Assembly: GCA_965223545.1 (NCBI GenBank)
Contig: OZ245006.1
Location: forward strand, 4,128,001 to 4,192,000
Source of the DNA: Planctomycetota bacterium
Lineage (GTDB): Bacteria; Planctomycetota; UBA1135; UBA2386
DNA length: 64,000 nucleotides
Direction of reading: 5' to 3'
Made by a program: the position numbers and the translations under genes. The number at the start of each line of letters is the position of its first letter. The stretch's first letter is position 1. The notes under the pieces were generated by a model. It did not search any database, had not been told where the DNA came from, and was given only the letters and a program-made list of their open reading frames with translations. Below, in pieces: positions 30,867 to 46,284 of the stretch.

Positions 30867-30939
30867 GGGTCCTTAGCTCAACGGTTAGAGCAGCCGGCTC
30901 ATAACCGGTAGGTTGTGGGTTCGAATCCCGCAGGGCCCA
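30867..30939 (+). tRNA. tRNA with CAT anticodon, probably tRNA-Ile2 (lysidine); CCA not encoded
   Basis: Acceptor GGGTCCT/AGGGCCC+A, D arm AGCTCAACGGTTAGAGC, anticodon arm GCCGG-CTCATAA-CCGGT, T loop GGTTCGAATCC. Lacks initiator features and resembles Ile2 sequences. Confidence 0.93.
30920..30939 (+). repeat. attL core (in tRNA 3' end)
   Basis: TTCGAATCCCGCAGGGCCCA, identical to 45582-45601. Confidence 0.95.
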
Positions 30940-31008
30940 TGTCCGCGGAGGGGTGTGGACGGGAGCGAGAGCGCGTCTCGCATTGGTTCTCGAAAGCGGG
31001 GGTGGGGC

Positions 31009-31030
31009 GTGTGCACTCTGGTGTGCACTC
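31009..31030 (+). repeat. Tandem GTGTGCACTC pair, putative integrase arm-type sites (left)
   Basis: GTGTGCACTC at 31009 and 31021; the same 12-bp-spaced pair occurs at 45409/45421. Confidence 0.75.
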
Positions 31031-31205
31031 TGGTGCCCCGGAGGCGCAGGTGGCGGCCGCCACCATGGCCCTTAAATGCCGCCGCCCCCACAGCCGGCAA
31101 GCACGCAGGGGCGAACAGGTTTACGGACGCCGCGCCGAAGCGCGACGTTCGGCAGCGTAGGGCGGCCGGCAGCCCGACGCAAGCGCTGACCAACAGGGGC
31201 TCGCG

Positions 31206-32573
31206 ATGAGCGCCGCCCCCAAACTTGCGACGGCCGCGCATCGCCGCCGTGTGCAGTGGGTTCCGTTGCCTCTCGGAGATCGGCACCCGGCAGCAGAATT
31301 GCTCGCGCTTGTGCGTGCCGACGTACCCGTGCCGGCGTCGCCGTCTGCGGTGGCCCATCGGCTCGGTTGCTCAGCGCGCACCGTGCGCCGTGGCATTCTG
31401 GCGGCGATGGACGACCGACTCCTCGAGGAGCACGGTGGCGTGCTCGTTCCGGGTGCGGAGTGGTCGCGCTGGTGGCACGGACGCGCGTGGGCGCCGCTGC
31501 CCATGCAGATGCTCCGGGAGGGCACCGCGGCCACTCGCCGAGCTGCAGCCGCCCTCCTGGGCGAGGCTCAGCGCGATCGTCGGGGGGTGCCTACGATCGA
31601 CGAGCTCGCGGCACGCGTCGGGGGCGGTCGCCACACGATCTACGCGGGGCTCGACCTGCTGGTGGAAGCGGGGCTGGCGGAGCCGGTCCGCTGCCATCGC
31701 CGAGGGGTTCGACTGACCCGGTTCCGGGTCACGAGTGATCTCCGGTGGTCCACTGCGCTCGCCCCTGAGCGGGCGGCAGAGCTTGGCCAACTGGCCGCCC
31801 GCCGATCGTCGGATGCCTCCCGACTGCGGGACTCTCGGGGCCGATTTGCCGCTACCGGACATGGACAAACCAGCACTCCGGGACGTGGACAAACGAGCAC
31901 GCCCCCACTACAGACTTCCAAGGAAGTACAGCCCCCACAGGCTCGCCCGCGGCTCGCAGCCGGTGGCGAGCAATCTTCTCGAAAGGGATTCAGTGGTCTG
32001 ATCGCCGTCCCCGAGGTCGTCGGTCCCGAGGCCGTCGCCGCCGCTCTCGAGCGCGTGCGCCCAGAGGGGCGGGTGTCGATCCTGGAACCCTCGCGGCCCG
32101 GTCGCCGACCGCCGCCGAAGCGCGATGCCCCGACGATCTCGGCCGCCGAACTGCGGGACGGTCTTCGCCGATCGGGCGTGCTCGAGCGGCTCGTGGCAAA
32201 GGTCCAAACTACGACCGACCCTGCAGGCACGTGCCGTGAGCTGCTGGGGCTAGCACTGGTTTTCACGGCGGGCAGTGCTAGTCGATCGGCAAGGAAGCGA
32301 AGCGAACTCGCTCGGGGGCTTGTCGCATACCGAGGCCCAAACGCGCCCGTTGAGCTGTTGGTGCTGATCTTGCACTTGGCCGCAGCATCCCCATGGAACA
32401 TCGGCGGCGCGCTTCGAGCCAAGAGGCTGCCCCGACTGATCAGCGGAGGGCTCGACCTGGCGCTTCTCGAGGACGAGGCGCCGTCGCTCGATGGTGCGTG
32501 CGCTCGGTTGCTGGCGGCTTGGGAGCGGGATGGACGGAAAGGTGCGCAGGTACGAGCAGGAGTGAGCAGATGA
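31206..32573 (+). CDS. Putative replication initiator (two HTH/wHTH motifs)
   Basis: SPSAVAHRLGCSARTVRR and PTIDELAARVGGGRHTIYAGLDLLVEAGL; internal GQTSTP repeat; ATGA-coupled to the next gene. Confidence 0.6.
   Translation: MSAAPKLATAAHRRRVQWVPLPLGDRHPAAELLALVRADVPVPASPSAVAHRLGCSARTVRRGILAAMDDRLLEEHGGVLVPGAEWSRWWHGRAWAPLPMQMLREGTAATRRAAAALLGEAQRDRRGVPTIDELAARVGGGRHTIYAGLDLLVEAGLAEPVRCHRRGVRLTRFRVTSDLRWSTALAPERAAELGQLAARRSSDASRLRDSRGRFAATGHGQTSTPGRGQTSTPPLQTSKEVQPPQARPRLAAGGEQSSRKGFSGLIAVPEVVGPEAVAAALERVRPEGRVSILEPSRPGRRPPPKRDAPTISAAELRDGLRRSGVLERLVAKVQTTTDPAGTCRELLGLALVFTAGSASRSARKRSELARGLVAYRGPNAPVELLVLILHLAAASPWNIGGALRAKRLPRLISGGLDLALLEDEAPSLDGACARLLAAWERDGRKGAQVRAGVSR
31857..31904 (+). 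repeat. 24-bp tandem repeat inside the rep-like gene (iteron-like)
   Basis: GGACATGGACAAACCAGCACTCCG / GGACGTGGACAAACGAGCACGCCC, 20/24 identical. Confidence 0.7.
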
Positions 32574-33520
32574 CGACCAATGACGACAACCGAACGTTGA
32601 CCGACGAAGAAGTGCAGGAACTCCGACAACTGAAGGAACTCCTGCCTGAGCAGACGTACGGAGGCTACACAGCTCATCCGGCAGCAGAGCTGTTCCCTGG
32701 ACTTCCAGGTGACGAGCTAGGGGAGCTGGCGCAGGACATCGCGAAGAACGGGCAGAGGTTCCCGATCTTCTTGTGGCGCGGGCAGGTCTTGGATGGCCGG
32801 AGTCGGCTTTCAGCGTGCGCGCAAGTTGGGGTGGAGCCGTGGACGGAGGATGTCACCGAGCAAGTCGCGGACCCGTTCGAGTTCTCGGTTTCGGCCAACC
32901 TTCACCGCCGGCACCTGACGATTGGCCAGCGGGCCGTGATCGCCCAAGTTCTGGAACAGCGCTACAAGGAGCAAGCTGCGTCCGCCAGCACTCGGGGGGC
33001 GTTGGGTGGAAGGGGTCGCAAGAAAGCTGTTGTCAAATCTGACAACAGCTTTCCTGGCGAGGCGAGTAGCGCGAGCAATGGGCCTGCGAACCATTCCCGG
33101 GCCAGAGCGGCAAGACGCATGCGCATCAGTGAGGGGGCAGTTGCTCAGGTCAACATGATCAAGGAGGGTGCGCCGGATCTTCTTCCCGAGGTCGCATCAG
33201 GAGGGCGCTCCATCAACTCCGCCTTGACCGAGATGAGAGCTCGCGAGCCACAAGGCCAACCGAAACGGAGTGCCAAGCGTCGCGCTGAGCATCGCAAGAA
33301 GGCCGCCCCCGCGACCACCGGCGTCGTCGCTGATGAGGTGATGCTCAAGGTGATCGATCGCTTTCGCGAGTCGGCTGAGTCACCCGGTACGAAGCTGCAG
33401 GCCGCTGAGGAGTTCTTGCGCTTCCTGCGCAAGTCGGCGGAGTTGGATCCCGCCGTCGTGGCGCTCCTCGATGTTGCGTTGCCGCTGCTGGCGCGCGCTG
33501 GTGCTGAGACCAGCGCGTGA
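32570..33520 (+). CDS. Phage-type ParB/Srx N-terminal domain protein with HTH
   Basis: HPAAELFP...ELAQDIAKNGQRFPI...VLDGRSRLSAC...SANLHRRHLTIGQRA; ATG 32570 overlaps the rep stop. Confidence 0.8.
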   Translation: MTTNDDNRTLTDEEVQELRQLKELLPEQTYGGYTAHPAAELFPGLPGDELGELAQDIAKNGQRFPIFLWRGQVLDGRSRLSACAQVGVEPWTEDVTEQVADPFEFSVSANLHRRHLTIGQRAVIAQVLEQRYKEQAASASTRGALGGRGRKKAVVKSDNSFPGEASSASNGPANHSRARAARRMRISEGAVAQVNMIKEGAPDLLPEVASGGRSINSALTEMRAREPQGQPKRSAKRRAEHRKKAAPATTGVVADEVMLKVIDRFRESAESPGTKLQAAEEFLRFLRKSAELDPAVVALLDVALPLLARAGAETSA

Positions 33521-33695
33521 CCCGCGCCCGGTTTCATCGGGGGGAAACGGAGCCCAATGTGGGTGTTCCTGTAGCCCGCTTTGACGGTGAGAAGCGGTCG
33601 GGTTTGCTGACGGAGGATTCTCTGGGTGCGTGGATGGGCCGCAACACCAGTCGTCAATTCAGGTTATGCCTCCTGAAACGACAAACGTTGCGATT

Positions 33696-33738
33696 TTGAG
33701 GATCCTCACTTGAAGTTGAGGATCCTCACTCATAACCT
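33696..33738 (+). promoter_or_regulatory. Two palindromic operators overlapping a sigma70-type promoter
   Basis: TGAGGATCCTCA at 33697-33708 and 33717-33728; TTGAAG(33710-15)-N17-TAACCT(33733-38). Confidence 0.75.
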
Positions 33739-33746
33739 GCTTGGAG

Positions 33747-34229
33747 ATGGCACGAACGAACTTCTACATCAAGGACGAGGTCCGCGAGCGCATGCGGGAG
33801 GCGAGTCACGTGAACTGGTCACGGGTGGCCTCCGCAGCGATCGAAGCCAAGCTCGCGGAGCTGAACCGCGAGAAAGAGATAGCTATGACCGATCAGCAAG
33901 TCGTCGACCGCATCCGGGCGAGCAAGAACATGCAAGAAGACACCGACCAGAAGGAAGGATTCGACGCGGGCGTCCAGTGGGCAAAGCTGGCGGCCGAGTG
34001 GCGGCACTTCGAGCGCCTCAGCAAGATCAACTCTGCCGACTCGCCTGATGACTACCCAGGTGACTGGCTGTGGGAGACCGTCATCGGCCCGGACGAGGGC
34101 AGCCGACCTCGTCGCGACGACGTGGAGGCGCTGTTCGGCGAGGGGATCGCGGATCCGTCGCACTCGTTCGTGGAGGGCTTCATCGAGGGCGCCCTGACCG
34201 TCTTCGAGAACGTCAAGGAGCAGCTCTAA
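33747..34229 (+). CDS. Ribbon-helix-helix (CcdA/CopG-like) N-terminus plus unknown acidic domain
   Basis: MARTNFYIKDEVRERM...VNWSRVASAAIEAKL is a beta-helix-helix pattern. Confidence 0.75.
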   Translation: MARTNFYIKDEVRERMREASHVNWSRVASAAIEAKLAELNREKEIAMTDQQVVDRIRASKNMQEDTDQKEGFDAGVQWAKLAAEWRHFERLSKINSADSPDDYPGDWLWETVIGPDEGSRPRRDDVEALFGEGIADPSHSFVEGFIEGALTVFENVKEQL

Positions 34230-34235
34230 GCCGTG

Positions 34236-34595
34236 ATGATCGATCAGCAAGTCCTCGACCGCCTTCGGGAGAGTAAGAGCATGCAAGAAGACCTCGACCT
34301 GCACGCCGGGTTCCACTCTGGCGTCGACTGGGCCAAGCAAACGGCCGAGTGGGTGCATCTAGAGCGCCTTAGCAAGATTTGCCCAACCGACCTGCCCGGC
34401 GATGGCGCCGGAGATTGGCTTTGGAGCGAGATCATGGCGCCAGGAGAGAGTCGGAGTGGCAGTGTTCCCCGCGAGGAACTTGATGCGTGCTACGGCCTTT
34501 CCGAGAACGCTCACGATGCTTCGCATTTGTTCTTGGCCGGATTCATCGAAGGCGCCGAGGCCGTCTTTGCGAACGTCAAGGAGCAGATCATTTAG
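34236..34595 (+). CDS. Stand-alone paralog of the C-terminal domain of the upstream gene
   Basis: MIDQQVLDRLRESKSMQED...ERLSKI...GDWLW...GFIEGA..VFANVKEQ aligns with MTDQQVVDRIRASKNMQED...ERLSKI...GDWLW...GFIEGA..VFENVKEQ. Confidence 0.8.
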   Translation: MIDQQVLDRLRESKSMQEDLDLHAGFHSGVDWAKQTAEWVHLERLSKICPTDLPGDGAGDWLWSEIMAPGESRSGSVPREELDACYGLSENAHDASHLFLAGFIEGAEAVFANVKEQII

Positions 34596-34720
34596 GGCTC
34601 CCGGGAGCGAGGTTGGGGCCGCCGACACGCGGTCCCCTGCTGTGAGGATGTGGTAGCTCATCGCTACGGACTGCGATGAACTCTCGCGGCAGCTTGTTCT
34701 GACTCAGCTCTCGGCATGCC

Positions 34721-34758
34721 GGGGCCGCGCACACGTGCAGGGTGCGCGGCCCCTTTTT
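34721..34758 (+). terminator. Intrinsic terminator
   Basis: Perfect 12-bp stem GGGGCCGCGCAC/GTGCGCGGCCCC, 9-nt loop, TTTTT. Confidence 0.85.
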
Positions 34759-34790
34759 GGTTCCGACGCCGGCTCCTACAGCGACGACGG

Positions 34791-35429
34791 CTACTGAGCG
34801 GCAAGCGCATCTACAAGTTTCGCGGCGGCCAGCACGTTCGCTGCGAACATGCCGCCGAGAGCCCCGGCCAGCCTTGCTGCAGACGCTCGTGCTGCCTTGC
34901 GCTCGTTCTCGAGGCCTTCGATGTAGTCACGGAGGCTCCAATGGATCTCAAACCCTGGAACTTCGCGAACGGGGTCCAGCAGGAACCAGCTCTTTGCAAG
35001 GACGATAAAGCGGTCGGCCTGGATCCCCCCAGGTCCGCCCGACATGTACAGAACCCGGAGCCCATCGACTCCTGAACCCGGGATGGGCCGGCTAGAGGCA
35101 CGCTCGTCGCCGGGACGTCGGTCGACGAACTGGACGCACTGACTCTTCACCAGCCAGGTGATCTGCTTGTAGCGCGCAGAAAAGCCCTCAGCGGCCGCGT
35201 AGCTGTGCAGTGCACCAGACAGGCCCAGTAGTAGCTGGACCCCGATCTGAATGTTGAGGGTCCATTCCGCAACGGTTGGCCAGCTCGCTGCCTTGGTGCT
35301 CACCAAGATCGTTCCGAGCAAGGTGACGGTGCCACCCGCGAAGAGAGCCCAACTCAGCACCCGTACTAAGGTGCTCAGCCTTGGTGGGCGCTTTGCTTGC
35401 TCGCTCAACCCGCTGCTCATGTCGCTCAT
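34791..35429 (-). CDS. Hypothetical membrane protein (accessory cargo; the only antisense gene in the element)
   Basis: 212-aa ORF with two N-terminal hydrophobic helices and a hydrophobic C-terminus; lower-GC codons. Confidence 0.55.
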   Translation of the reverse strand: MSDMSSGLSEQAKRPPRLSTLVRVLSWALFAGGTVTLLGTILVSTKAASWPTVAEWTLNIQIGVQLLLGLSGALHSYAAAEGFSARYKQITWLVKSQCVQFVDRRPGDERASSRPIPGSGVDGLRVLYMSGGPGGIQADRFIVLAKSWFLLDPVREVPGFEIHWSLRDYIEGLENERKAARASAARLAGALGGMFAANVLAAAKLVDALAAQ

Positions 35430-35848
35430 TGGTTGCCTACGCTAACGTCTCGGGGGTGGCTTGACCCACACCCTACCGGTCCACGAAAGCTCTGGCGCTC
35501 TCAGGCGAGCCAAGAGCGAACCGAGCGACTTCGTGGACTGATCGACGAGCCAAGGGAAGGCGACCCAAGCAGCGACTGGCTCAGCGGTCTGGTCGCCGCC
35601 ATCCCGCAGCTCGAGCGCGTGATCGATGAGGACTCACCGATCGAGGTGGCGTTCTTCGAGTTTGTGATCGCGGGCTTTCTAAGCGGTGCAGTGCCCGAGG
35701 CGATGGAGTGCGAGGAGTGAGCCGGTCCCGGTCGAAGACGATTGTTGTTGGCAATCTCGCGGCAAAGTCTCGTCAATAACTCTTATAGTCGGCTTTTTCG
35801 GGGTCGCGGGGTCTACAACTCGCTTGTTGGTTGTGGCATATCAGACGC

Positions 35849-38593
35849 ATGCCGACCGTTGAGCAGCTGCGACTTGACATTGACGCGCGGGGGGCTGCGC
35901 GAGGCGGACGCGAGGCAGCCCGAGCCACCGATCGAGTTGCGGCGAGCGCGAAGCGCGCCGATCGCGCCGTCAACAAGTTCGACGGTGAGCTGCGCACGAT
36001 GGGCCAGACGACTCGCTCGCTGCTCGGCCCGTTGCTCGGTCTGGGAGGCGCGTTCACCGGTATCGCCGCCGCACGCTCGGCATTCGGCACGCTCTCGAGC
36101 TTCGACGGTGGGGTTGCGTCGCTGCGTGCGCTGACCGAGGCGACATCCGCGAGCGCCGAGCTAGCCACAGCGGAGATGGTCGAGCTCGAAGAGGCCGCGC
36201 GCGGCGTAGGCGCTTCCACGCGCTTCTCTACAAACGAGGCGATCACGGGCCTCGAGGGTCTGCGGCGTGCTGGTCTCTCGACCCGAGAGGCAATCGCGGC
36301 CATTGGACCTGCTGCGGACATCGCGGTCGTTGGCAAGCTAGGCTTCGCCGAAGCGGCCGATCTAGCAGCTGCGACGATGCGGCAATTCCAACTGCCGGCC
36401 GGGGAGATCCGAGTCGCGCTGGAGCAGCTGAACGCGGCCGCGGTGCGCTCGAACACCGGCGTCGCGGAGCTGAAAGAAGGCTTTCGAGTTGCTGCCCCCC
36501 TCGCGCATCAACTCGGTGCCGACGTCGCCGAGGTCGGCGGCATCCTCGGCATACTCGCAGACTCTGCGATCAAGGGCTCGGAAGGCGGAACCAAGTTCGC
36601 GTCATCGATGGCGGCGTTGCTGGCGCCAAGCCGTGAGGCTCAAGAGATCCTCGATGGCGTTGGCCTTTCCGCCGATCGAATCGCCGCCTCGCTTGGCGAT
36701 CCCGCGCACTTGTTCCGTGAGTTGGGGCAGGCAGGACTCTCGGCCTCTGAGTCAGTTCGCATCTTCGGCCGCGAGAACGCCGCCGCCGCCGCCATTTTGC
36801 AAGAGAACGCGGACCGTGCGATCGAACTCACAGCCGCGATCCGAGAGTCGAGCGGCGAGATGCGCCAGATGGCGGAGACCAGCGCCGACTCGCTCCAGGG
36901 GAAGGCCACGGAGCTCGAGAGCGCCATCGAGGCATTGACGATCGCGCTTGGTCAGAGCGGGCTCACAGCCGCGCTCACGTCGACGGTCGAGGGCATGACC
37001 GCCGTCGTCCGCGAGTTGGGCGGGCTCGACAAGTCGATGGCGTCCGCGAGCCTCACTGTGTCGACGACCGCCGACGCCGTGCGGACTCTTGCGCTTGTTC
37101 TTGGTGGTGCAGGGCTCGTGGCCGCACTCGGGAAAGCCCAGGCCGCGATGACGGCTCTGGACGCGGCGACGAAGATCAACCCGGTGCTCTTGTGGGGGAC
37201 GGCGATCGGCGTCGCAGCGTCAACCGTTCTCGAGTTCACCAGCAACGCGGCCAAGGCAGAAGAGGCTGCGGCCCAGCTCAATGCCGAGCTTGCGCGACTC
37301 GACAAGCAACGTGAGACCAACATCGCGGGCTTCCTGGGCAAGTTGGAGCCTGACCTGTCCGGTGTGCGCAGCGGGGCAGACATCTTGCAGGATGTGCTCG
37401 GAAGCAGTGTGCTGCCGAGTCCGGACGAGTTTCGCCAGCGCTTGCAGGAGGGGCTGGGGCAATCGCGCGAGATCATCGGCGAGGAGATCCGGGGGCTCCA
37501 ACAGACGTTGGACAACCTGTTCGAGGCGCTGGGTGATCGCTCGGTAAGCGCGCGTCAGCAGGACGCGTTTCGCGAAGGCATCGAGCAGACGAAGGCAGAG
37601 ATCGAGGGCCTCATCGCAAAGTACGATGAGCTGACGCAGACGAACGCTGCCGCTCTTCAAGCGGAGTTCGATCGGCAGAAGGCGATCGCTGACGCCGAGC
37701 AGGCGCGACAAGCCGCGGTCGCCGCAGCTGAGGCCGAGAAGGCGGCGATCGAGGCGACTGCAACCACGTTGCAGGAGATCACGGACCAGCTTCGGCTCGA
37801 GGCCGAGCTTGCGGGGTTGAACGCGGCCGAGCGCGCGCGGCTCCTGGCCACTCGCCAGGTCGAAGAGATCATCGCTGCCTCAGGCATCACCAGTGAGGAG
37901 GAGCGTAACCGCCTGCTCAAGGAGCAGATCGATCTCGTCAACGAGTTGATCGACCTGCGGTCGCAACGTGAGGAGGAAGCCCGGCGCGCCGACGACGAGA
38001 GGTTTCAGGCGAGCGTGCCGCAGCTTCGCGGGACCTACAGCGAGGTCGGTCAGCGGCCGCTCTCACAGGAGAGCGAACTCGCGTTGGGGCAGGTCGGCAA
38101 ATCCGCTGGCCGGGCGATCTCTGAGGGTCTTTTGGAAGTCATCGAGGGTTCCGGTGATCTCGAAGACATTGGCAAGTCGATCCTCCGACAGATCTCGGAG
38201 AGCGCTTACGAGAACTTCGTCACGAAGCCGCTTGCCAACCTGGGACAGGAGCTCCTGATCGCGCTGGGCGAGGGAGTCGGAAACGCGCTCTCGGGCAACA
38301 CGTCTGCAAGCTTGCTCGGCGGGAGCCCCGCATCGTCTTCCTCGAACCCCTATTCCGGATCGCAGGGTGTTTCGCCGCCGGCGCGCGCCTTGTTCGAGCC
38401 CCGCGTGCCTCTCCCGTTCTCTGGAGCACCGACGTTCCCGGATGGCTCTCGCGTTGGCGCGTCTCCGCAGGGCCAGCCAAGTCGCAGCACCGCTCCTACG
38501 ACCATCATCGTGCAAAGCATCGACCAGGCTGTGCGTACGAAACGCCAGATCGATGAGCAGCGCCGCCGCGACATCATGGGGAGGCGTCGGTGA
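35849..38593 (+). CDS. Phage tail tape-measure protein (914 aa)
   Basis: LRLDIDA start; TP901-type core (LEEAARGVGASTRFSTNEA...LRRAGLS...AAVRSNTGVAEL...LADSAIKGSEGGT...IFGRE...MAETSADSLQG..TELESA); TM-like stretch; coiled coil; lambda-H-like C-terminus (DIGKSILRQI...TKPL). Confidence 0.92.
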   Translation: MPTVEQLRLDIDARGAARGGREAARATDRVAASAKRADRAVNKFDGELRTMGQTTRSLLGPLLGLGGAFTGIAAARSAFGTLSSFDGGVASLRALTEATSASAELATAEMVELEEAARGVGASTRFSTNEAITGLEGLRRAGLSTREAIAAIGPAADIAVVGKLGFAEAADLAAATMRQFQLPAGEIRVALEQLNAAAVRSNTGVAELKEGFRVAAPLAHQLGADVAEVGGILGILADSAIKGSEGGTKFASSMAALLAPSREAQEILDGVGLSADRIAASLGDPAHLFRELGQAGLSASESVRIFGRENAAAAAILQENADRAIELTAAIRESSGEMRQMAETSADSLQGKATELESAIEALTIALGQSGLTAALTSTVEGMTAVVRELGGLDKSMASASLTVSTTADAVRTLALVLGGAGLVAALGKAQAAMTALDAATKINPVLLWGTAIGVAASTVLEFTSNAAKAEEAAAQLNAELARLDKQRETNIAGFLGKLEPDLSGVRSGADILQDVLGSSVLPSPDEFRQRLQEGLGQSREIIGEEIRGLQQTLDNLFEALGDRSVSARQQDAFREGIEQTKAEIEGLIAKYDELTQTNAAALQAEFDRQKAIADAEQARQAAVAAAEAEKAAIEATATTLQEITDQLRLEAELAGLNAAERARLLATRQVEEIIAASGITSEEERNRLLKEQIDLVNELIDLRSQREEEARRADDERFQASVPQLRGTYSEVGQRPLSQESELALGQVGKSAGRAISEGLLEVIEGSGDLEDIGKSILRQISESAYENFVTKPLANLGQELLIALGEGVGNALSGNTSASLLGGSPASSSSNPYSGSQGVSPPARALFEPRVPLPFSGAPTFPDGSRVGASPQGQPSRSTAPTTIIVQSIDQAVRTKRQIDEQRRRDIMGRRR

Positions 38594-38880
38594 CCGACGG
38601 ACAGAACGCGACGCTGCAGGACGCGGTCACGACGATCGTCGGGCAGCTCATGGCGTGGGCCGCGGAAGTGCGCAAGCTTCGACCCGCTGAGCGCGACGGT
38701 CGCATTGCGGAGATGCGGCAGCGGATGAGCGTGTTCGCCGCGGCTCAGCACCAAGCGCTGGAGGAAGCCAGTGCAGCCGGCGACAGGGAGGGCATCGCAA
38801 GCCACTCGCTCATGTCGTCCATGGCCGAGCGACTCGCGGAACAGCTGGGCGACTGGCTCGATCAGCCCAATCGAAACTGA
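38590..38880 (+). CDS. Hypothetical helical protein coupled to the TMP gene
   Basis: GTGA overlap with the TMP stop; GGGAGG RBS. Confidence 0.7.
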   Translation: MTDGQNATLQDAVTTIVGQLMAWAAEVRKLRPAERDGRIAEMRQRMSVFAAAQHQALEEASAAGDREGIASHSLMSSMAERLAEQLGDWLDQPNRN

Positions 38881-38922
38881 GGGCCCATAAGGCCAATTGA
38901 GGAAACGTCAGGACGAGACACG

Positions 38923-39909
38923 ATGCCACGACGCCAGCAGACCGTTGCACAGGCGCGCGCCGAGCAGGCACGCGAAGCCCAAGCCGATCGAGACCGCCAC
39001 GACGCGGCCAAGGAGCGCGACCTTCGCGCGCGCGCATGGGTGCACTGGGGCCAGGGCTCGGCACGCCTCGCTCTCGCGGAGGGCGACACGAGCTCGGCCA
39101 GCTTCTTCGCCAGCAAACTCGCGGCGCCGCACCGCGAACTCACGGCCGAGCTGGCGAGGATTCGCGACGATTCGCGGCTGACCGCCGAGGGCAAGCGCGA
39201 TGCTGTCGCGGCGGTGGCCAAGCGGATCCGTGCGCGCTTCGACGACAGCGGCGATCCGCTGCACGTTGTGCGGCGCAAGATCGAGCAGCACGCGGCACAG
39301 GCCAAGGACGCGACGGCCGCCCTCCAAAGTCTCGTGCGGCAGCGAGCTCTCGGAGTTCGCCGGGAGAACTTCTACGATTCGGCTCGAGCGATCGCTGACT
39401 CCGAAGCGTTCGCGCGGCTCGCTGCGAAGGAACAGGTGGCGCGCATCGCCGATGCCGAAGCATCCGGCGACGTCCGCACCTTGTTGGCTGCCGCTGAGGC
39501 CTCGGCGTGGTCCGGTGTCGTCGAGGAGTGCAGGGAGCGCACCATGCGGACGCTCACGTCGTTGGTCGCCGGCGAGGAGGCGCGCGAGGTTGAGACCCTG
39601 TCGGCACAAGCGACCATCGCCGAGCAACAGCTCGCCGCAGCGCTTGGTGGCCTCGAGCTGCTGGCGGCGGCACCACGGCTCGGGCTCGGCAAGGGGCGTG
39701 ATGGCGACGACGTTCTCGCTGACGCCAGCCTGGTGAGTGCGGGGTACCTCCTCAAAGCCGACGCGGAAGGCGTGTCGCCCGACTTGCTCGATCCCACACC
39801 ACTGACTTCCGAACGGCGGCCGCAGACGGCGGAAGATCGCTTGCAGGAGCACTACGAACGACAAGTCGAGCGTCAGGTGGGCCCCGCCGTTGGCGCAGAC
39901 GCGCCGTGA
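38923..39909 (+). CDS. Hypothetical Ala-rich coiled-coil protein (328 aa)
   Basis: Long ORF with AGGA RBS, same strand as the operon; no recognisable family. Confidence 0.7.
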   Translation: MPRRQQTVAQARAEQAREAQADRDRHDAAKERDLRARAWVHWGQGSARLALAEGDTSSASFFASKLAAPHRELTAELARIRDDSRLTAEGKRDAVAAVAKRIRARFDDSGDPLHVVRRKIEQHAAQAKDATAALQSLVRQRALGVRRENFYDSARAIADSEAFARLAAKEQVARIADAEASGDVRTLLAAAEASAWSGVVEECRERTMRTLTSLVAGEEAREVETLSAQATIAEQQLAAALGGLELLAAAPRLGLGKGRDGDDVLADASLVSAGYLLKADAEGVSPDLLDPTPLTSERRPQTAEDRLQEHYERQVERQVGPAVGADAP

Positions 39910-39944
39910 CTGGCAAGGAATCTTCAATCGGAGGTTACACAGCG

Positions 39945-40358
39945 ATGACAGCACAGCAGAAGTACGACGCCATGCGCGCGCACGCGCCCTCACAACCAGT
40001 CCCTCCTGACGGGAAGCCTCTGGCCGGTGAAGTGGTTTGGGACCTCGCGCAAGCGCGTTGGCGACGGCTTCCGGCGGTTGATGCCAGGGAAGGCGTGGCC
40101 GTCGGCATCTACGCACGCAAGAGCCCGAGCGGAGTCACGACAGCCAACCCCGCTGGCAAGGCTTGGGTGCGCGACGTCGCATCCGCAGCGACCTACTTCG
40201 TCGATGCGAACGACGCCGAGGAGATGATCGCCGCTGGCCTCGCCGAGATCGTCGACGCGCACGAGGAGCGCGAGCGGGCCGAGGCAGCCGTCGCCGCGGA
40301 AGAGGCGGCCGGCCGCGATGCGATGGCGAATGTTCGCGCGGCACGAGGAGGACCGTAG
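39945..40358 (+). CDS. Hypothetical phage-type protein
   Basis: GGAGG RBS; motif YFVDANDAEEMIAAGLAEIV resembles small proteins of phage head gene clusters. Confidence 0.65.
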   Translation: MTAQQKYDAMRAHAPSQPVPPDGKPLAGEVVWDLAQARWRRLPAVDAREGVAVGIYARKSPSGVTTANPAGKAWVRDVASAATYFVDANDAEEMIAAGLAEIVDAHEERERAEAAVAAEEAAGRDAMANVRAARGGP

Positions 40359-40547
40359 GTGCCCGACGAGCCGGAGAGGCTACGGCGCTTGAGTCCGCGG
40401 CGGGGTGTCGCCCAGTTCATGAGTGTCGAGGAGCTGGTTGAGGAAATGCGGCGGCGCTATCCCGACCAGTTCTTCCGCGGCTCCGAGCTCGAGTGGCGTC
40501 AGCGAACGACTGTTGTCGCGCGGAGGCGCGCGAGGCGCTGGCGGTGA
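40359..40547 (+). CDS. Small hypothetical protein
   Basis: GAGGAGG RBS; abuts the previous stop and overlaps the next start (GTGA). Confidence 0.5.
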   Translation: MPDEPERLRRLSPRRGVAQFMSVEELVEEMRRRYPDQFFRGSELEWRQRTTVVARRRARRWR

Positions 40548-41014
40548 GCGACCGCGACGAGCGGGGCAGGTTCAAGCCGGGCTGCCGCGGCGGTCCGGGC
40601 GCGGGCAACGTCCGGTATGTCACCGTGATGCGGGCCGCGATTCGCGAGGCGGTCAACGCCGGCGAGGTGCGGGAGGTGCTGCGAGCGATGCTGACGGCCG
40701 CGAAGAAGGGCGACACGGCCGCGTCAAAGTTGCTTCTCGAGTACGGCCTGGGGAAGCCGACGGCGATCGCTGCGGACCCCACAGGCGTCGAGCTGCCGAA
40801 GCTCGACAGCGTCAGCGCATGCGTCGAGGCCGGCGAGCGGCTCACCGCGGCCGTCTTGCGTGGTGAGCTCGCAGCGGCCGATGCCGAGCGGCTGGCTCGG
40901 ATCATCGACGTCGCCCAGCGCGGGCTCGAGGCGATGGAGGTCGGCGCACGGCTTGATGAGATCGAGGGCGCGCGCGTCTTCTTGAAGCTCGAGGCGGGAG
41001 GTCTTCGTGCCTAG
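40544..41014 (+). CDS. DUF5681-like / small terminase-like protein
   Basis: RDERGRFKPGCRGGPG N-terminus, then helical AAKKGDTAASKLLLEYGLGKP. Confidence 0.65.
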   Translation: MSDRDERGRFKPGCRGGPGAGNVRYVTVMRAAIREAVNAGEVREVLRAMLTAAKKGDTAASKLLLEYGLGKPTAIAADPTGVELPKLDSVSACVEAGERLTAAVLRGELAAADAERLARIIDVAQRGLEAMEVGARLDEIEGARVFLKLEAGGLRA

Positions 41015-41351
41015 TTGGCGGCAGCGGCTGCGTCGCTTGGGGCCGCAGATCGATGACCTCGAGCAGAGCGCATGGTGCGTTCGCGCGGCTCGCGGCGTGC
41101 CCTCCTCGAGCGATCGCGAGGAGAGTTGGCGGCTTCGCATGGACTTGTTCGGCGTGATGGCGTTCCTGGACTACCCGCACGAACCAAACCACGAACCTGC
41201 TCCGGACGTCGCCGAGGCCACCGCAGCGGTTCTGGGCCTCGATTGGCCCGAGCACGAGCCCCACCCGCGCGGCTTGACGCTGCAGCAGCTGCGCGGCCAC
41301 CTGAACGTCCTACGGATGGAGCTACCGCACCATGAAGACGGCCACGCCTGA
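41007..41351 (+). CDS. Hypothetical protein
   Basis: GGGAGG RBS; overlaps both neighbours. Confidence 0.6.
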   Translation: MPSWRQRLRRLGPQIDDLEQSAWCVRAARGVPSSSDREESWRLRMDLFGVMAFLDYPHEPNHEPAPDVAEATAAVLGLDWPEHEPHPRGLTLQQLRGHLNVLRMELPHHEDGHA

Positions 41352-41538
41352 TCGTCGCGACCGGACATCGGTCGCTCTCCCTCGCCGTCTCCGCGACGAG
41401 TTGCACCGGACCGCAGCATCAATCTCAGAGGCCCGTGGCGGCAGCCGCGTCGCGTTGGCCGAAGTCATCGCGCTCGGCGTCCGCGAGCTGAGTCGACGCT
41501 GCCCGTCGTGCTGGCGACCACCCGAAGCGCATAACTGA
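41332..41538 (+). CDS. Small RHH-like DNA-binding protein
   Basis: RTSVALPRRLRDEL...ALAEVIALGV; last gene before the terminator. Confidence 0.55.
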   Translation: MKTATPDRRDRTSVALPRRLRDELHRTAASISEARGGSRVALAEVIALGVRELSRRCPSCWRPPEAHN

Positions 41539-41553
41539 ACTCACTCCAGGAGT

Positions 41554-41602
41554 GCGGGCGTCGCCTTGGCCTCGGCGGTCGGGGCGGCGCCCGCTTTTTC
41601 TT
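41554..41602 (+). terminator. Intrinsic terminator ending the TMP operon
   Basis: GCGGGCGTCGCCTTGGCC...GGTCGGGGCGGCGCCCGC stem (with G-U pairs) followed by TTTTTCTT. Confidence 0.8.
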
Positions 41603-41611
41603 GCCAGACTC

Positions 41612-41640
41612 TTGACACGCCAGCGCCGTTCTGATAACGC
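41612..41640 (+). promoter_or_regulatory. Candidate sigma70 promoter for the recombinase operon
   Basis: Perfect TTGACA (41612-17), 17-bp spacer containing TGn, imperfect -10 TAACGC. Confidence 0.5.
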
Positions 41641-41746
41641 TCATTGCGTCCACGCTGAGATCGGCTCGGCACTCGGACAAAGAATCGGCCCCCGGGGGTG
41701 CGCTAACACCCACCGAGAGCCTAACCCGCAAAGTGAGGAAAGCACG

Positions 41747-42028
41747 ATGCAGGCTGAGCGTAAACCTAGCGCTCTCGTTGGTTTCGGCCAACTGTTGGCT
41801 TCGCGTCTCGAGGAACTCGAGCGCAAGCACCCCAACCCCGACCACGCCGCGCGGATCGAGGAGCTCGTCAACGAGCTGGCGAGACGCTTTGAGATGCATC
41901 CGGAGATCGACGCGAGCACCTCGGCGCCGGCGTGGCGCCTTGTCGACACGATGACCGCACACGACATCGCGCGGCTTCGGGTTCGCACCGTCACGATGCT
42001 GCAGCCGATCGAGGGAGGTTCGCGATGA
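41747..42028 (+). CDS. Hypothetical protein (93 aa)
   Basis: GAGGAA RBS; ATGA-coupled to the recombinase. Confidence 0.65.
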   Translation: MQAERKPSALVGFGQLLASRLEELERKHPNPDHAARIEELVNELARRFEMHPEIDASTSAPAWRLVDTMTAHDIARLRVRTVTMLQPIEGGSR

Positions 42029-43023
42029 CCGCCATCGCACTCGCGGCACCCGCTCCCGACCCGCGCGACGTTCCTGCGGTGCTTCAGCGCGAGCTGGGCG
42101 AGGACTGGTTGCGCGGCAAGAGCCCTGCGACCATCGCGGCATACCGCGGCGACCTTCGGCAGTTGGCGCTCTGGCTCGAGCTGCCCGGCGGAGAACAGGC
42201 CACGCTCGGCTACGTGACGCGACTCAGCTCTGTCGCGTTGAATGGGCTGGCTTTGCGCTGGCGCGGCGCGATGACCGAAGCGGGCCTGTCCAGCTCGACC
42301 ACCAATCGCAGGCTCGCATCGCTTCGTTCAGCGGTCAGGTTCGCGCGCATGCTCGGCATGACGTCGGCGACGATCGATGTCGCTGGCGTCCGACCTGAGC
42401 CTCGACGCGACAGCCGAGGCCCGACCGCAACCGAATTTCGAACGATGCTCGAGGCGCTCGAGCGGCGGCCCGATCACGCGCGCAAGTTGCGCCTTCGAGC
42501 GATGCTGCTTTGCCTTGGCGTGCTTGGTTTGCGTCGTGGCGAAGTCCTCGGTCTCGACCGTGAACACTGGGCCGACGGTCGCCTCATGGTGAAGCCGAAG
42601 GGTAGGCGAGAACGTCATCCCCTGACGGTGCCCCCGCTGGTGGCAACGGCGCTCGACCGATGGTGTGCGTCGTGGCCTGCGGAGGATGGGCCGCTGTTCG
42701 TCACGCTGCGCGGACGCACGACGGGTGCACGACTGTCGGCGACGGCGTTTGCCGGCTCGCTCAAGGTGCTTGGTCGCCAGGCAGGGCTCGAGCGTCCAGT
42801 GCGGCCACACGGCTTGCGACACTGCGCCGTCACGTGTGCGCTCGACACGCGCGACGGCGACTTGCGCGCCGTGAGGCGCTTTTCACGCCACGCGTCGCTC
42901 TCGATGCTGCTCGTCTACGACGACGATCGAACCGACACGTTCGGCGAGATTGCGCGCGCCGTCGAGGCCGCGCTCGTTCCGCAGGCCGTCGTCGAAGCGA
43001 CGAACGCGAAGGGAGGCGCGTGA
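42025..43023 (+). CDS. Tyrosine recombinase (Xer/resolvase-like, no arm-binding domain)
   Basis: SAM-like N-domain (SPATIAAYRGDL, SSSTTNRRLASLRS); catalytic R (GLRRGE), K (KPKG), HGLRH, FSRH, Y (VYDD). Confidence 0.92.
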   Translation: MTAIALAAPAPDPRDVPAVLQRELGEDWLRGKSPATIAAYRGDLRQLALWLELPGGEQATLGYVTRLSSVALNGLALRWRGAMTEAGLSSSTTNRRLASLRSAVRFARMLGMTSATIDVAGVRPEPRRDSRGPTATEFRTMLEALERRPDHARKLRLRAMLLCLGVLGLRRGEVLGLDREHWADGRLMVKPKGRRERHPLTVPPLVATALDRWCASWPAEDGPLFVTLRGRTTGARLSATAFAGSLKVLGRQAGLERPVRPHGLRHCAVTCALDTRDGDLRAVRRFSRHASLSMLLVYDDDRTDTFGEIARAVEAALVPQAVVEATNAKGGA

Positions 43024-43517
43024 TGGGCTGGGTCGGTGCGCGTGAACTCACCCCGGAAGAGATGGCGAAGATCAGCGAGCGGAACCGCGACCAGCTTGGA
43101 CCGCACGCGCACGAACAGCTGGCCGAAGCTCTGTTCGATGAACTCCGCGAGGTGTCGGACGCGTCGCGCGGCGACGTTGATCCCGGCACCTTCGTGCTGG
43201 CGGCGCTGGCCCGTGCGGCGCCAGGCGTCGCGAGCGGACTTGACTTCGCGATGAACTACTACCGGCATGAGCCCGAGGTGCTCAACGTCCTGGTGGGCGC
43301 TTTAACGCTGGCCGGCGACTATGAGTACATCCGGGGCAACCTGGCCGATGCGGACCCCGCGATTCGCCGTGCCCAACAGTCGGCCCTGTGGATGCTCAAG
43401 GGCATCGAGGCGGCTTTCCCAGCCGATCAGTTCGAGCCCAATCCTGGCGAAGCGCTGAGCCAACACGAGGCGCGTTTCCGAATCGACCATCAGCGTGCCG
43501 GCGGGGCCGACTTCTGA
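43023..43517 (+). CDS. Hypothetical protein (164 aa)
   Basis: GGGAGG RBS; TGATG overlap with the recombinase stop. Confidence 0.7.
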   Translation: MGWVGARELTPEEMAKISERNRDQLGPHAHEQLAEALFDELREVSDASRGDVDPGTFVLAALARAAPGVASGLDFAMNYYRHEPEVLNVLVGALTLAGDYEYIRGNLADADPAIRRAQQSALWMLKGIEAAFPADQFEPNPGEALSQHEARFRIDHQRAGGADF

Positions 43518-43987
43518 TGTGCGGCGGCGCGTCGGTCCGTGTTCCGGCGCGTCGCCACCCGCTCGCGCCGCATAAGCGCGATTCAGCCTTGTCGCTCGCC
43601 GGGCGGCGGCGAGGGCGCATTCGGCGCTCGCTGTTGCGCCGCGGACCGCGCTTCGCCATGGCGCCGAATGCAGCAGCCAGACGCTGCCCATCGCAGAAAG
43701 CGAAAAAAAGTTGGGGCGCACTCGTCGGCCGCCCGAGCGAACGGGTGCAACGGCAACTCTGTGCCAACCGGGAACGGGCGAGAAGGGGGTAAGTGCCTTG
43801 AGCGTGTCGGCCTACGTCACTTGGCGACGTCCTACGCCATTCCGCGTGGGCCCGTGCCGCGGCAACGTCGTGTCAAGAAGAGGATCAAACTCAACACCGA
43901 AGACTCGGCAAGACGTCGGTGGACCACTCTAGACGCGCCTTTGCGTGGCCTGGCGCTCTTGCCCTGAGCGAGGCAGTTTGAACTTCC

Positions 43988-44197
43988 ATGATCTCGATCT
44001 CACCCGCACAGCAGTTGCTCACTGTCGACCAGGTTGCGGTCGTCCTGCAGATCTCACGTCGCACGGTGTTTCGGCTGTCCGCCGATCCACGGAGTGGCTT
44101 CCCGCCCAAGTTGCGCATCCGGGGCTCGACTCGGTTTCGCAAATCGGACGTCCTTCGCTTCTGCCAGACTGGGGGCAGGGAGAGCGTCGAGAGCTGA
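43988..44197 (+). CDS. Excisionase / AlpA-like HTH (recombination directionality factor)
   Basis: LLTVDQVAVVLQISRRTVFRL...FPPKLRIRGSTRFRKSDV; TGATG-coupled to the integrase. Confidence 0.88.
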   Translation: MISISPAQQLLTVDQVAVVLQISRRTVFRLSADPRSGFPPKLRIRGSTRFRKSDVLRFCQTGGRESVES

Positions 44198-45522
44198 TGG
44201 GTCGGAGCGGCACGAATCCGTACCGCCGCCGAGGCTCGCCGTATTGGCAGATCCTCTACCGCGATGCTGAAGGACGGAAGCGACGCGAATCGACAAAGAC
44301 CGGTGACATTGTGATCGCTCGCGCAATCCTCGCGGAGCGAGTCAAGGAGGCTGCGCAAGGGCGTGTCGGGCATCGTGACGAATACGCGGCTACGCGCCGG
44401 GCGGACGTCGACGATCTGATCGAAGCGTTCTGTGAGGCCCGTCTGGGGCGAGGGATCACGCAGAAGCGGGTCAGCGATCTAGCTCGCTTCCTGCGTTCCG
44501 TGTGCTCGCGGGCCAGCGTGCGCCGTCTGGACGACGTGGACGTGGCTCGCGTGGAGCGAGTCTTGGCGACGATCCGACGGGAGCGTTCCGTCTGCACCCG
44601 GGACCACCATGCAGCCGCCCTACGAACGTTTGGCTTATGGCTCGTTCGCAGTGATCGTTGGCCAACCGATCCCTTCGCAGCGATCGAAACGCACACGCGG
44701 ACCGAAGCCGATCGCAAGTTCGACCGCCGAGCGCTTCGGCTCGAAGAGCTGGAGCTGCTTGCCGCAGCCGCCCCGCAGCGAGCAGTGCAGCGCTGGGTCG
44801 CGACGCACCCTCCCGGGTCGGACGACGATGAGGCCAAGCGGGCCTCGACGATCGAGGAACTCGAGCGGCGTGGTAGAGAGCGGGGACTGCTGTACTTGTT
44901 CCTCGCGTACACTGGCATGCGTCGAACCGCCTGTCAGCGGTTGCGATGGCGGGACGTCGTTCTCGACGGCGAACACCCTCGCGTCGTGATCCGGGCAGAG
45001 ACACAGAAGGGTCGGCGAGATCACTTCGTGCCGTTGGCTCCTTGGTTGGTGAGTGCGCTACCCGAACGCCGCCGCGAGCGTGCGCTCTGGGGTCGCCACC
45101 CGAATGGTGGTCCGCTGTCGGGGCCGGTGAGAGACAGCGACCCGCTGTTTCATGTGCCCGACAAGCTCGCGGAGCTCTTGCGCCACGACGCCGAGTTTGC
45201 GGGTTTGGGTGATCGAGACCCCACGTGGGATCGCCTCGATGCCCACGCGCTGCGCAAGTCCTGCGCGACGCTGCTGGTGGAGGCCGGAATGCCGCCCGCG
45301 ATTGCCCAGAAGGTGCTGGGGCACAAACGCATCACCACCACGATGAAGTACTACGCACGCATCGGCGACGACCTCGTACGTTCCGAGTTGGCTCGCCTGC
45401 CTGCTCCCGTGTGCACTCCCGTGTGCACTCAACCAGTTCCCGGTGAGTCAACGCATGGCACACCAGGACACACCGAGGGCGACGACGATCCGCCCCAAAC
45501 CGATGAAACGAAGACTGGATAG
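44197..45522 (+). CDS. int: Phage-type tyrosine integrase
   Basis: N-terminal arm-binding-like beta domain (YWQILYRDAEGRKRRESTKT); YTGMRR, K, HALRKS, LGH, YY; ends 59 bp before attR. Confidence 0.95.
   Translation: MGRSGTNPYRRRGSPYWQILYRDAEGRKRRESTKTGDIVIARAILAERVKEAAQGRVGHRDEYAATRRADVDDLIEAFCEARLGRGITQKRVSDLARFLRSVCSRASVRRLDDVDVARVERVLATIRRERSVCTRDHHAAALRTFGLWLVRSDRWPTDPFAAIETHTRTEADRKFDRRALRLEELELLAAAAPQRAVQRWVATHPPGSDDDEAKRASTIEELERRGRERGLLYLFLAYTGMRRTACQRLRWRDVVLDGEHPRVVIRAETQKGRRDHFVPLAPWLVSALPERRRERALWGRHPNGGPLSGPVRDSDPLFHVPDKLAELLRHDAEFAGLGDRDPTWDRLDAHALRKSCATLLVEAGMPPAIAQKVLGHKRITTTMKYYARIGDDLVRSELARLPAPVCTPVCTQPVPGESTHGTPGHTEGDDDPPQTDETKTG
45409..45430 (+). repeat. Tandem GTGTGCACTC pair, putative arm-type sites (right; inside the int 3' end)
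   Basis: GTGTGCACTC at 45409 and 45421. Confidence 0.75.
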
Positions 45523-45581
45523 CCCAATCGGGCGCGAAGTGGCACACTGTGTCACGGATGTGGAGAGGACTACGCGATTCC

Positions 45582-45601
45582 TTCGAATCCCGCAGGGCCC
45601 A
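45582..45601 (+). repeat. attR core (duplicated tRNA 3' end)
   Basis: TTCGAATCCCGCAGGGCCCA. Confidence 0.95.
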
Positions 45602-45635
45602 CGATCGCGCGGGGCTGGGAACGGAAGCGAGAGCG

Positions 45636-46106: not shown

Positions 46107-46284
46107 GGGAGCTGGCCGCCGTCGCCGGTCTCGCGCCACGCGATGCAATCACTCGCGTAGGTCGTCGGAGGTTGCCCGTACCAGGGGAGATTCTCCCGTT
46201 TGTGCCGAATGGTACCGAAAGCGTCGTGAGGGCGGGGTCGCGGTCCAGCTTGTCGCCATGCCGGTCGTCGGCGAGGATGCGGCG

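Follow-up and report, generated by a model that had tools for sequence, protein, structure and literature searches.

The 64,000-nucleotide stretch of DNA analysed here (the window; G000:C1:4128001-4192000) belongs to a planctomycete host genome, G000, which comprises 8.1 Mb in two contigs (C1 and C2) and appears to be an uncultured genome bin. It carries a 14,662-bp element, integrated at a tRNA gene with a CAT anticodon, that encodes its own tape measure protein (TMP), and the closest relative of this TMP lies in a 77-kb siphoprophage of the same chromosome. Searches of the element against Pfam, NCBIfam and PHROGs (the last on 28 plus 57 open reading frames (ORFs) from all six frames) gave no match to a capsid, portal, large terminase (TerL), tail tube or lysis gene. 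One shadow ORF matched a PHROG 'virion structural protein' at E=0.029, and the same PHROG library recovered capsid, portal, TerL and further such genes in both phages co-resident in the genome. We consider it very probable that the element is of a satellite type and not debris. On balance, and with less assurance, we favour the reading that it is a helper-dependent satellite of siphophages of the 77-kb prophage type, which would swap the core of the TMP at unchanged tail length.

A tape measure matched to a resident siphoprophage

The sequence-only reading of this DNA had advised looking for a siphophage helper in the same genome, and a candidate was found. One of the three PF10145 matches in the host genome falls within an intact siphoprophage (G000:C1:7775486-7852900; the candidate helper) of 77.4 kb, which sits at tRNA-Asn between 45-bp att sites. 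Its genes include int, xis, a repressor, the small terminase (TerS), TerL, portal, scaffold, major capsid protein (MCP), adaptor, neck, terminator, tube, tail assembly chaperone (TAC), TMP and baseplate, and these genes are full-length and without insertion sequences (IS). Presumably its baseplate resembles the gene-transfer-agent type. A toxin-antitoxin-like pair separates the prophage's two Dit-like genes, and one of its early genes is a 1534-aa ORFan. Genes outside the window were called with our own codon-score caller, by which some may be missed.

The TMPs of the element (914 aa) and of the prophage (901 aa) differ in length by 13 residues and are 40% identical overall, but the identity is concentrated at the ends: 69 of the 76 N-terminal residues are shared (91%), as against 35% across residues 77-740 and 66% over the last 70, with 22 of 25 identical at residues 846-870. 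The hydrophobic segments of the element TMP lie at the same positions as in that of the prophage. This match is specific, since at the N-terminus the TMPs of two other phages with the same baseplate type are only 26% and 38% identical to that of the element (26/32/20 and 38/27/24% for N-end/middle/C-end), and that of the phage on contig C2 24% (24/23/31%). Among 8000 candidates scored from 5.8 billion proteins, the prophage TMP was the sole match to element residues 1-130. Synonymous differences between the two genes are about equal along their length (0.46 at the N-terminus and 0.51 in the middle, with saturation at about 0.6), which argues that the ends were kept by selection and not by a recent swap. 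Pattern scans of IMG/VR and GTDB genomes returned no relatives of the TMP, and a search of 41 related genomes gave one weak match, a myovirus TMP in G023.

A second link is regulatory. The element's ribbon-helix-helix (RHH)-like regulator is 41% identical to a prophage gene, and a profile of this protein with its C-terminal domain, run over 339 genomes, gave full matches in the element and the candidate helper only, plus one weak partial match; no viral contigs matched. In all, only the TMP and two regulator genes, out of 18 element ORFs tested, have clear homologues in the 77-kb prophage. Contig C2 (39.6 kb) itself reads as a whole HK97-type siphophage with a full head and tail module; it looks circular, with the portal at the contig end and a TerL-sized gene at its start, and has no PF00589 integrase match. 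We rejected it as the helper on TMP identity (27% over 62 residues only, besides the values above), and found no convincing C2 homologue for the other element genes.

Boundaries, integrity and gene content

The features of the element are collected in Table 1. Its 20-bp core has two copies only in the whole 8.1-Mb genome, and the tandem pair of 10-bp repeats likewise occurs twice on the chromosome, once at each element end. In a lambda-type attP, arm sites stand on both sides of the core; after circularisation the 10-bp pairs would likely flank the element's core in the same manner. The bases just inside attL (30940-30973) resemble those just outside attR (45602-45635; 83% over 54 nt with the core counted in), which looks like an old copy of the tRNA's downstream region carried by the element. 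The GC content of the element is 66.2%, that of the chromosome 69.7%, and 88% of the element is coding. A simple repeat finder detected no CRISPR array, and no sigma-70 promoter matches were seen.

The sequence-only reading had raised the possibility of an assembly collapse inside the element. This is unlikely, as is a hidden collapsed module, because contigs of Logan run X3, which may be the source sample, cover the element gap-free (30883-35149, 35127-35638, 35609-35708 and 35689-48200) at flank-level depth (28-34 for the element, 29 for the left flank); one contig spans attR unbroken. In a second sample, run X4, the left-flank contig (window 28300-30912) has a depth of 4, whereas the element, the right flank and a tRNA-Ser remnant described below have 14-16, perhaps owing to strain variation. 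Runs X5 and X6, from two other studies, contain short near-identical pieces at low depth over window 34702-47858, covering element and right flank, some of which pass into dissimilar sequence (as at 38989 and 40251). No RNA run was listed among those with sequence of the element.

Table 1. Features of the element and its target site (window positions)
Feature	Position	Strand	Remarks
Target tRNA	30867..30939	+	CAT anticodon; Met by ARAGORN, possibly Ile2
attL core, 20 bp	30920..30939	+	Forms 3' end of CAT tRNA
Tandem 10-bp direct-repeat pair	31009..31030	+	Just inside attL; likely integrase arm-type sites of attP
Rep-like initiator, 455 aa	31206..32573	+	Two winged helix-turn-helix (wHTH) domains; weak HTH_29/HTH_36 matches
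Period-24 direct-repeat pair inside rep	31857..31900	+	Candidate origin iterons
ParB-like protein, 316 aa	32570..33520	+	PHROG 12047 (2e-5), PHROG 4715; TIGR00180 weak
14-bp near-palindrome, two copies, upstream of RHH gene	33696..33729		Candidate operator; two copies only in genome
RHH-like regulator with C-terminal domain, 160 aa	33747..34229	+	Homologue in 77-kb prophage
Tandem copy of regulator C-terminal domain alone, 119 aa	34236..34595	+
Terminator-like hairpin	34721..34758	+	12-bp stem, T5
Antisense cargo gene, 212 aa	34791..35429	-	One N-terminal hydrophobic segment; no family match; 73% to copy in tRNA-Ser remnant
Third paralogue of regulator C-terminal domain	35490..35720	+	5'-deleted; ~90 bp shorter than remnant's copy
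TMP, 914 aa, TP901 type	35849..38593	+	PF10145 6e-29, TIGR01760 7e-40, PHROG TMP 6e-45
o96	38590..38880	+	GTGA overlap with TMP; no family match
o328, all-helical ORFan	38923..39909	+	Not HK97-like in low-confidence model
o137, two beta-hairpin/helix repeats	39945..40358	+	Likeness to helper head-region gene not significant
o62	40359..40547	+	17/32 residues as in helper scaffold (residues 196-227); candidate mimic or relic of that scaffold
o156, DUF5681-like	40544..41014	+	Candidate small terminase; ESM Atlas 0.94
o114	41007..41351	+	No family match
o68, 68-aa ORF	41332..41538	+	No family match
Strong intrinsic terminator	41554..41604	+	18-pair stem and T run
o93	41747..42028	+	Coupled to second recombinase
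Second tyrosine recombinase, XerC-like	42025..43023	+	R170, H262, R265, H289, Y298
o164	43023..43517	+	No family match
Excisionase-like HTH (xis)	43988..44197	+	TIGR01764 2e-6; PHROG 66
Integrase	44197..45522	+	PF00589 1.7e-17; R242, K271, H350, R353, H376, Y386
Second tandem arm-type repeat pair	45409..45430	+	Near attR
attR core, 20 bp	45582..45601	+	Second copy of 20-bp core

Much of what the sequence-only reading had described holds. The 14.66-kb insert lies between perfect att cores; the gene order is as it was given there; its own TMP without capsid, portal, TerL, tail tube or lysis genes was found again; and a planctomycete host is supported by the relatives, which are Planctomycetota. 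The tight coupling of genes is present at six junctions (ATGA at rep/parB and o93/int2, GTGA at TMP/o96 and o62/o156, TGATG at int2/o164 and xis/int), and both tyrosine recombinases retain R, HxxR, H and Y. The two operon-ending terminators are also there, while terminator-like sites in total (10) are not above shuffles (8.5 +/- 2.9). Other points had to be adjusted. Only the first of the supposed RHH regulator pair has an RHH-like N-terminus, the second being a copy of the C-terminal domain, to which a third, 5'-deleted paralogue is added. The six genes counted after the TMP become seven with the 68-aa ORF. The label of a TerS-like DUF5681 gene stands in ESM Atlas and fails in Pfam. Further model searches of the element found no connector (adaptor or stopper) in PHROGs, no primase or helicase in Pfam, PHROGs or NCBIfam, and no AlpA, MerR or Stl, and PADLOC returned nothing convincing among 15 element proteins.

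Several of the small ORFs were compared with the candidate helper. The best non-self match of o62 among 6354 ORFs was the prophage scaffold (E=0.036; 62/90 nt), at a score that two of 600 shuffles and one of 217 small host ORFs also reach. We regard a relationship between o62 and the scaffold as a moderate lead, because nine ORFs were tested and the shuffle control is lenient. That leniency follows from o93, which matched residues 462-511 of the helper TMP above 600 of 600 shuffles, yet as a gapped helical match that we did not count; it weakens the o62 result too. We rejected homology of o137 to the helper gene that stands between those for decoration protein and adaptor: its pairwise E-value was 0.008, but 103 of 150 shuffles equalled the score and profile tests failed. 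For o328 there was no homologue, ESM Atlas matching only hypothetical clusters at low recognition; its single-sequence model (pLDDT 55) is all helix without a fold match, and it matched neither the scaffold profile nor the tested helper counterpart of the helical family of the G143 type (G143 being the host of another TMP island; see below). More speculatively, o96 could be a partner of the TMP or an excluder of the helper's TMP.

Relatives of the element's genes

The integrase family is present in 33 of 251 genomes of the order, and the regions read around its members, often at a tRNA of the same type, contain xis, a primase-like gene, the second recombinase and homologues of o156. Of 38 loci of this family from GTDB, 35 belong to Planctomycetota or Brocadiaceae, and 27 have xis homologues. 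The o156 protein matches a DUF5681 cluster in ESM Atlas at 0.94 (60% of members) and has homologues in 40 of 339 genomes, one of which (L123:8041-11985, in G168:C2) is found in an island of the same integrase family, two genes away from a TerL that shares 39% identity with the candidate helper's. We infer that DUF5681 proteins act as TerS.

Between the element's Rep and the one in the G130 TMP island, identity is 30%. A four-sequence Rep profile matched 17 of 91 genomes of the family, including the four source genomes, and 15 of the 17 new places were fetched and examined. Six rep-family elements are att-bounded, 8.8-18.2 kb long, and carry TerS-like genes with varied virion parts: decoration-like and tail J genes in G155, neck, scaffold-like and tail-tip genes in G226, a PHROG 332 'head-tail adaptor' in G118, and in G190 an o156 homologue alone. 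The G226 element (L094:6083-12277, G226:C16) is 15.7 kb long, stands in tandem with an 8.8-kb element, and its TerS, neck, scaffold-like and 1135-aa tail-tip genes are of a helper-like phage type. A central tail fibre J occurs in the small elements of G155:C62 (L088:2657-11959) and G003:C170 (L049), with a TMP in G003 and not in G155, and may point to host-range swapping. The G118 element (L099:9985-16255, G118:C12) belongs to the same integrase family, is 14.8 kb long and sits at a tmRNA; it has a TerS and a 549-aa PHROG 332 gene, which we take to be perhaps a podophage-type portal. Alignment searches with Rep gave no viral contigs and two metagenome contigs, of the same sizes as loci already in the set.

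The repeat pair inside rep matches at 16 of 18 positions, and none of 40 codon shuffles was as good. A period-23/24 repeat was the best repeat in 11 of 14 reps, exceeding all 40 shuffles in 6 of 14, mostly near codon 220; this would fit an origin inside the initiator gene. The origin of lambda likewise lies within its initiator gene, O. Homologues of the second recombinase are present in sibling elements. Judged by these relatives, int, xis and o156 belong to tRNA-Met-targeting islands that resemble phage-inducible chromosomal islands (PICIs), rep to att-bounded islands of 9-18 kb; the replication, integration and TerS-like genes derive from satellite-type islands of the same bacterial family.

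TMPs were surveyed with PF10145, which gave 60 places in 49 of 339 genomes, 40 of them fetched (36 read by ORF map, four by tblastn). Most are phage tail modules, seven are apparent false matches and five stand in small-element contexts. Two of these TMP islands have both att sites, G143:C32 (tmRNA, 30-bp core, 15.4 kb) and G097:C1 (tRNA-Leu, 55-bp core, 17.4 kb), while those in G130, G003:C170 and G247 are partial. Like the element, whose TerS is a candidate only, the G143 and G097 islands combine int, rep, TerS and TMP between att sites; G097 also has a head protease match, and there was no portal, TerL, MCP or tube match among their 19 and 21 ORFs, respectively. All three of G143, G097 and G130 share the double-HTH rep family with the element, and G143 its integrase family; the planctomycete islands differ from it in TMP type (PHROG 8462/9483), in a lambda-Nu1-type TerS (PHROG 57) and in an Ogr-like zinc finger. 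The 684-aa TMP of G143 is 93% identical to a 684-aa TMP in a 39-kb IMG/VR phage record, with 39 of the 49 differences in residues 251-500. When 13.5 kb of G143 was searched against the whole record, the matches were the TMP gene (91% at nucleotide level) and short stretches within the xis-like, Ogr-like and TerS genes; homology limited to the TMP gene held only within the 12 kb fetched at first, and was given up. Since the G143-type TMP is unrelated to that of the element, TMP capture has occurred at least twice, independently and from a different helper lineage.

The host genome holds further remains and islands. Near tRNA-Ser, an IS-riddled remnant (G000:C1:6909589-6918348) contains a cargo region 88% identical to that of the element, a broken TMP 5' end, and a regulator paralogue that retains the 5' part absent from the element's copy. 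A second remnant (G000:C1:7922032-7923670), 1.5 kb at tRNA-Gln between 23-bp att sites, consists of two fused rep ends. At tRNA-Arg there is a 17.8-kb PICI-like island without TMP (G000:C1:5321164-5339100; 46-bp att) that has a xis-like HTH, a primase, an IS in the integrase and a TerS-like gene of PHROG 4044, the family of the 77-kb prophage TerS; it is possibly a second satellite of the same helper. Islands at tRNA-Pro (14.8 kb, G000:C1:2338000-2352936) and tRNA-Phe (55.7 kb, 6538000-6594231) carry defence-like and metal-efflux-like cargo by ORF reading.

The satellite reading, its rivals and known systems

If the element is a helper-dependent satellite, it would excise on helper induction through Int, Xis and the arm sites, possibly cued by the regulator family that it has in common with the helper, and would replicate from the repeat pair inside rep while the second recombinase resolves multimers. 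The DUF5681-like small terminase would steer the TerL, portal and capsids of the helper to element DNA, a redirection of packaging that we infer, and o62, o328 and o137 may modulate head assembly. Were capsids not shrunk, one helper head would take about 5.3 element copies (77.4/14.66). The element TMP would dock on the helper's baseplate and tail terminator by its conserved ends and use the helper's chaperones and tube. At 1.6 A per residue (PMC12987554) the 13 residues amount to about 2 nm, so that the chimeric tails would hardly differ in length and would differ in their central core. The claim of the sequence-only reading that helper tails are altered is thus not borne out as a change of length, and the gain should therefore lie in the TMP core and not in tail-length control: the satellite might obtain another conduit for DNA ejection, or immunity to an agent aimed at the helper TMP. 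Such an agent could be an element-encoded excluder, as the Rta of PLE11, whose target is the TMP (PMC12987554), or a host defence such as SNIPE, whose target is probably the TMP (PMC13190303).

A number of results weigh against this reading. No attP or attB joint was present among the 15 of 25 joints listed for the run X3 contigs, in which rare forms are dropped, and the depth of the element equals that of its flank. Phage-phage TMP pairs conserve their ends too (84/81/96), so end conservation marks a working TMP only and not a satellite-specific design. At E<0.05 the element contains no homologue of the helper's TAC or baseplate hub, nor does it have a PHROG chaperone match, and hence nothing is shown for a choice of the element TMP over that of the helper; a highly diverged TAC may be present among the ORFans. 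No shared pac-like DNA was seen close to the helper terS, and o156 matches neither Pfam DUF5681 (PF18932) nor a PHROG TerS. One regulator paralogue of the element is broken, and the sibling elements at tRNA-Ser and tRNA-Gln are decayed. One rep branch, in G006, sits in a phage-like region (by eye a whole phage), where it groups with the tRNA-Leu rep of G097 and away from that of the element. Finally, TMP was absent within 10 kb of all 38 integrase-family loci (by a model that recovered 10 of 15 control TMP loci), from 20 of 20 DUF5681/int regions and from all 15 newly found rep-family places. The conserved int+TMP+DUF5681 family that had been proposed is not seen, and the TMP is an occasional capture.

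This rarity of the TMP among relatives, together with the lack of a TAC, the broken paralogue beside the TMP, the decayed siblings and the lack of visible excision, would also fit a real PICI-like satellite of the same helper in which the TMP is an unused passenger, or one that is inactive and starting to decay. We think this unlikely: the 2.7-kb frame is unbroken, with coupling to the gene that follows, its ends are conserved as protein despite 46% synonymous difference, and among 40 TMP loci inspected in relatives, 5 have a small-element context. The end-matched TMP without a chaperone or hub of its own could alternatively be a decoy or poison, whose ends enter helper tail assembly and leave the tails dead, thereby protecting the host population or handicapping the helper, much as Tai, Tab and Rta block the assembly of tails; such interference is common in PICIs and P4-like satellites (PMC11364771). 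The TMP is, however, full length, with hydrophobic segments placed as in that of the helper, it shares one operon with the TerS-like gene, and a satellite of the 77-kb helper needs working tails, which makes the decoy somewhat more doubtful still.

Slightly less credible again is the idea that the element arose once, by deletion, from a temperate phage akin to the 77-kb prophage. The TMP, the regulator family and perhaps o62 are indeed closest to that prophage, and one rep-family branch lies in a phage-like region. Yet the TMP and two regulator genes alone have clear prophage homologues, the TMP has neither an upstream TAC nor a downstream Dit, no structural-gene fragment was found in any frame, the gene junctions are coupled, the TMP to an unrelated ORF, int, xis, rep, the TerS-like gene and the second recombinase trace to small islands, and cargo and TMP 5' end are neighbours in the second remnant too. 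The view that the element is a streamlined satellite-type element and not simple prophage debris is further supported by the att-bounded TMP islands of other genera. As for the helper, with only 35% identity in the TMP middle the true partner may be a relative of the 77-kb prophage. A satellite of a quite different helper, be it the C2 phage, a second siphophage whose head and tail module is full, or one that this genome lacks, we hold to be very improbable, given the short TMP match to C2 and the lack of convincing C2 homologues for other genes.

With the helper-dependent satellite retained as our preferred reading, a wider possibility may be put forward tentatively, as something we would at present rather doubt than assert. 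The element could represent an undescribed planctomycete satellite class whose common base is a double-wHTH initiator with integrases aimed at tRNAs, and whose members have time and again taken up single virion parts from the lineage of their own helper: a TMP in this element, G143, G097 and G130, a tail tip in G155 and G226, and in other cases genes of neck, decoration, protease or portal-like kind. The exchange of the TMP at unchanged length would then alter the core through which DNA is ejected, so that satellite particles, unlike helper particles, escape TMP-targeting defences or helper exclusion.

Our literature search, in which subscription journals were thinly covered, returned no report of phage satellites in Planctomycetota, the relevant matches being work on the PLEs of Vibrio and on EPIPs. 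PLEs, including PLE11, are likewise integrated satellites with their own TMP diverged from that of the helper (20% identity in PLEs, 40% in the element), and their TMPs become part of chimeric tails and are required for transduction (PMC12987554; bioRxiv 2025.01.29.635557). They differ in encoding a TAC (PLE11 also a baseplate hub, BhuB), where the element has no detectable TAC or hub; in serving a lytic myovirus helper, ICP1, in Vibrio cholerae, where the element would serve a temperate siphoprophage in Planctomycetota; and in shortening the tail by about 10 nm, where the element TMP keeps its length (914 versus 901 aa) with terminal stretches 88-91% identical (PMC12987554). No PLE-named family turned up in our library scans; PLE gene homology was not directly tested.

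EPIPs of Mycolicibacterium aichiense resemble the element in size (about 11 kb), in combining TMP, TerS and integrase without tail tube or holin, and in having a resident prophage helper (PMC12822802). In the element the TMP is present, tube and holin are absent, and TerS is an ESM Atlas look-alike only. EPIPs use a serine integrase and the element has two tyrosine recombinases; they carry a head-to-tail adaptor and stopper, to which the element has no such match; and they show no close homology to their helper and have longer, variable tails, whereas the element has a helper-matched TMP of equal length (PMC12822802). The EPIP paper lists a major capsid protein among EPIP genes yet states that capsid proteins are lacking (PMC12822802).

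PICIs share with the element size, tRNA integration, integrase, a xis-like HTH, a replication gene, a candidate TerS and antisense cargo (bioRxiv 2022.09.14.508007). Against the PICI core model, however, the element has no AlpA, MerR or Stl match and instead a xis-type HTH and an RHH-like gene, a double-wHTH initiator in place of the primase-replicase module, and no library match to a capsid-morphogenesis gene, although o62 resembles the helper scaffold; the model also forbids tail genes, and the element carries a TMP (bioRxiv 2022.09.14.508007). A decayed prophage would be a poor description too, as no TAC, tube, Dit or head fragments surround the element TMP and there is one broken regulator paralogue only. 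Capsid-forming PICIs (cf-PICIs) encode their own capsid and packaging genes, whereas no major capsid, portal or TerL was found among the 85 element ORFs against PHROGs. The EPIP paper agrees that cf-PICIs encode capsid (PMC12822802), and some cf-PICIs do carry tmp, as the element does (legend of Extended Data Fig. 10 in PMC12987554, where PLE-like elements and cf-PICIs with tmp are listed). Satellite tape measures are thus less rare than had been supposed, occurring in PLEs, EPIPs and some cf-PICIs, and their benefit is still unexplained according to the PLE11 paper (PMC12987554).

In sum, the element would work like PLEs and EPIPs, yet it departs from each of them, as from PICIs and cf-PICIs too, in defining features. 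In PLEs and EPIPs the length of the tail is altered and further tail or neck genes are present; the element TMP stands alone, with the length and ends of the helper's and a core that alone is different, and a second, independent pair in another genus (G143) keeps TMP length too. Same length and ends with a different core separate the 'ruler' from the 'ejection conduit' of the protein, and point to the conduit as what is selected. Tail-manipulating satellites are hereby extended to Planctomycetota, with a helper that can be named and with element and helper in one chromosome.

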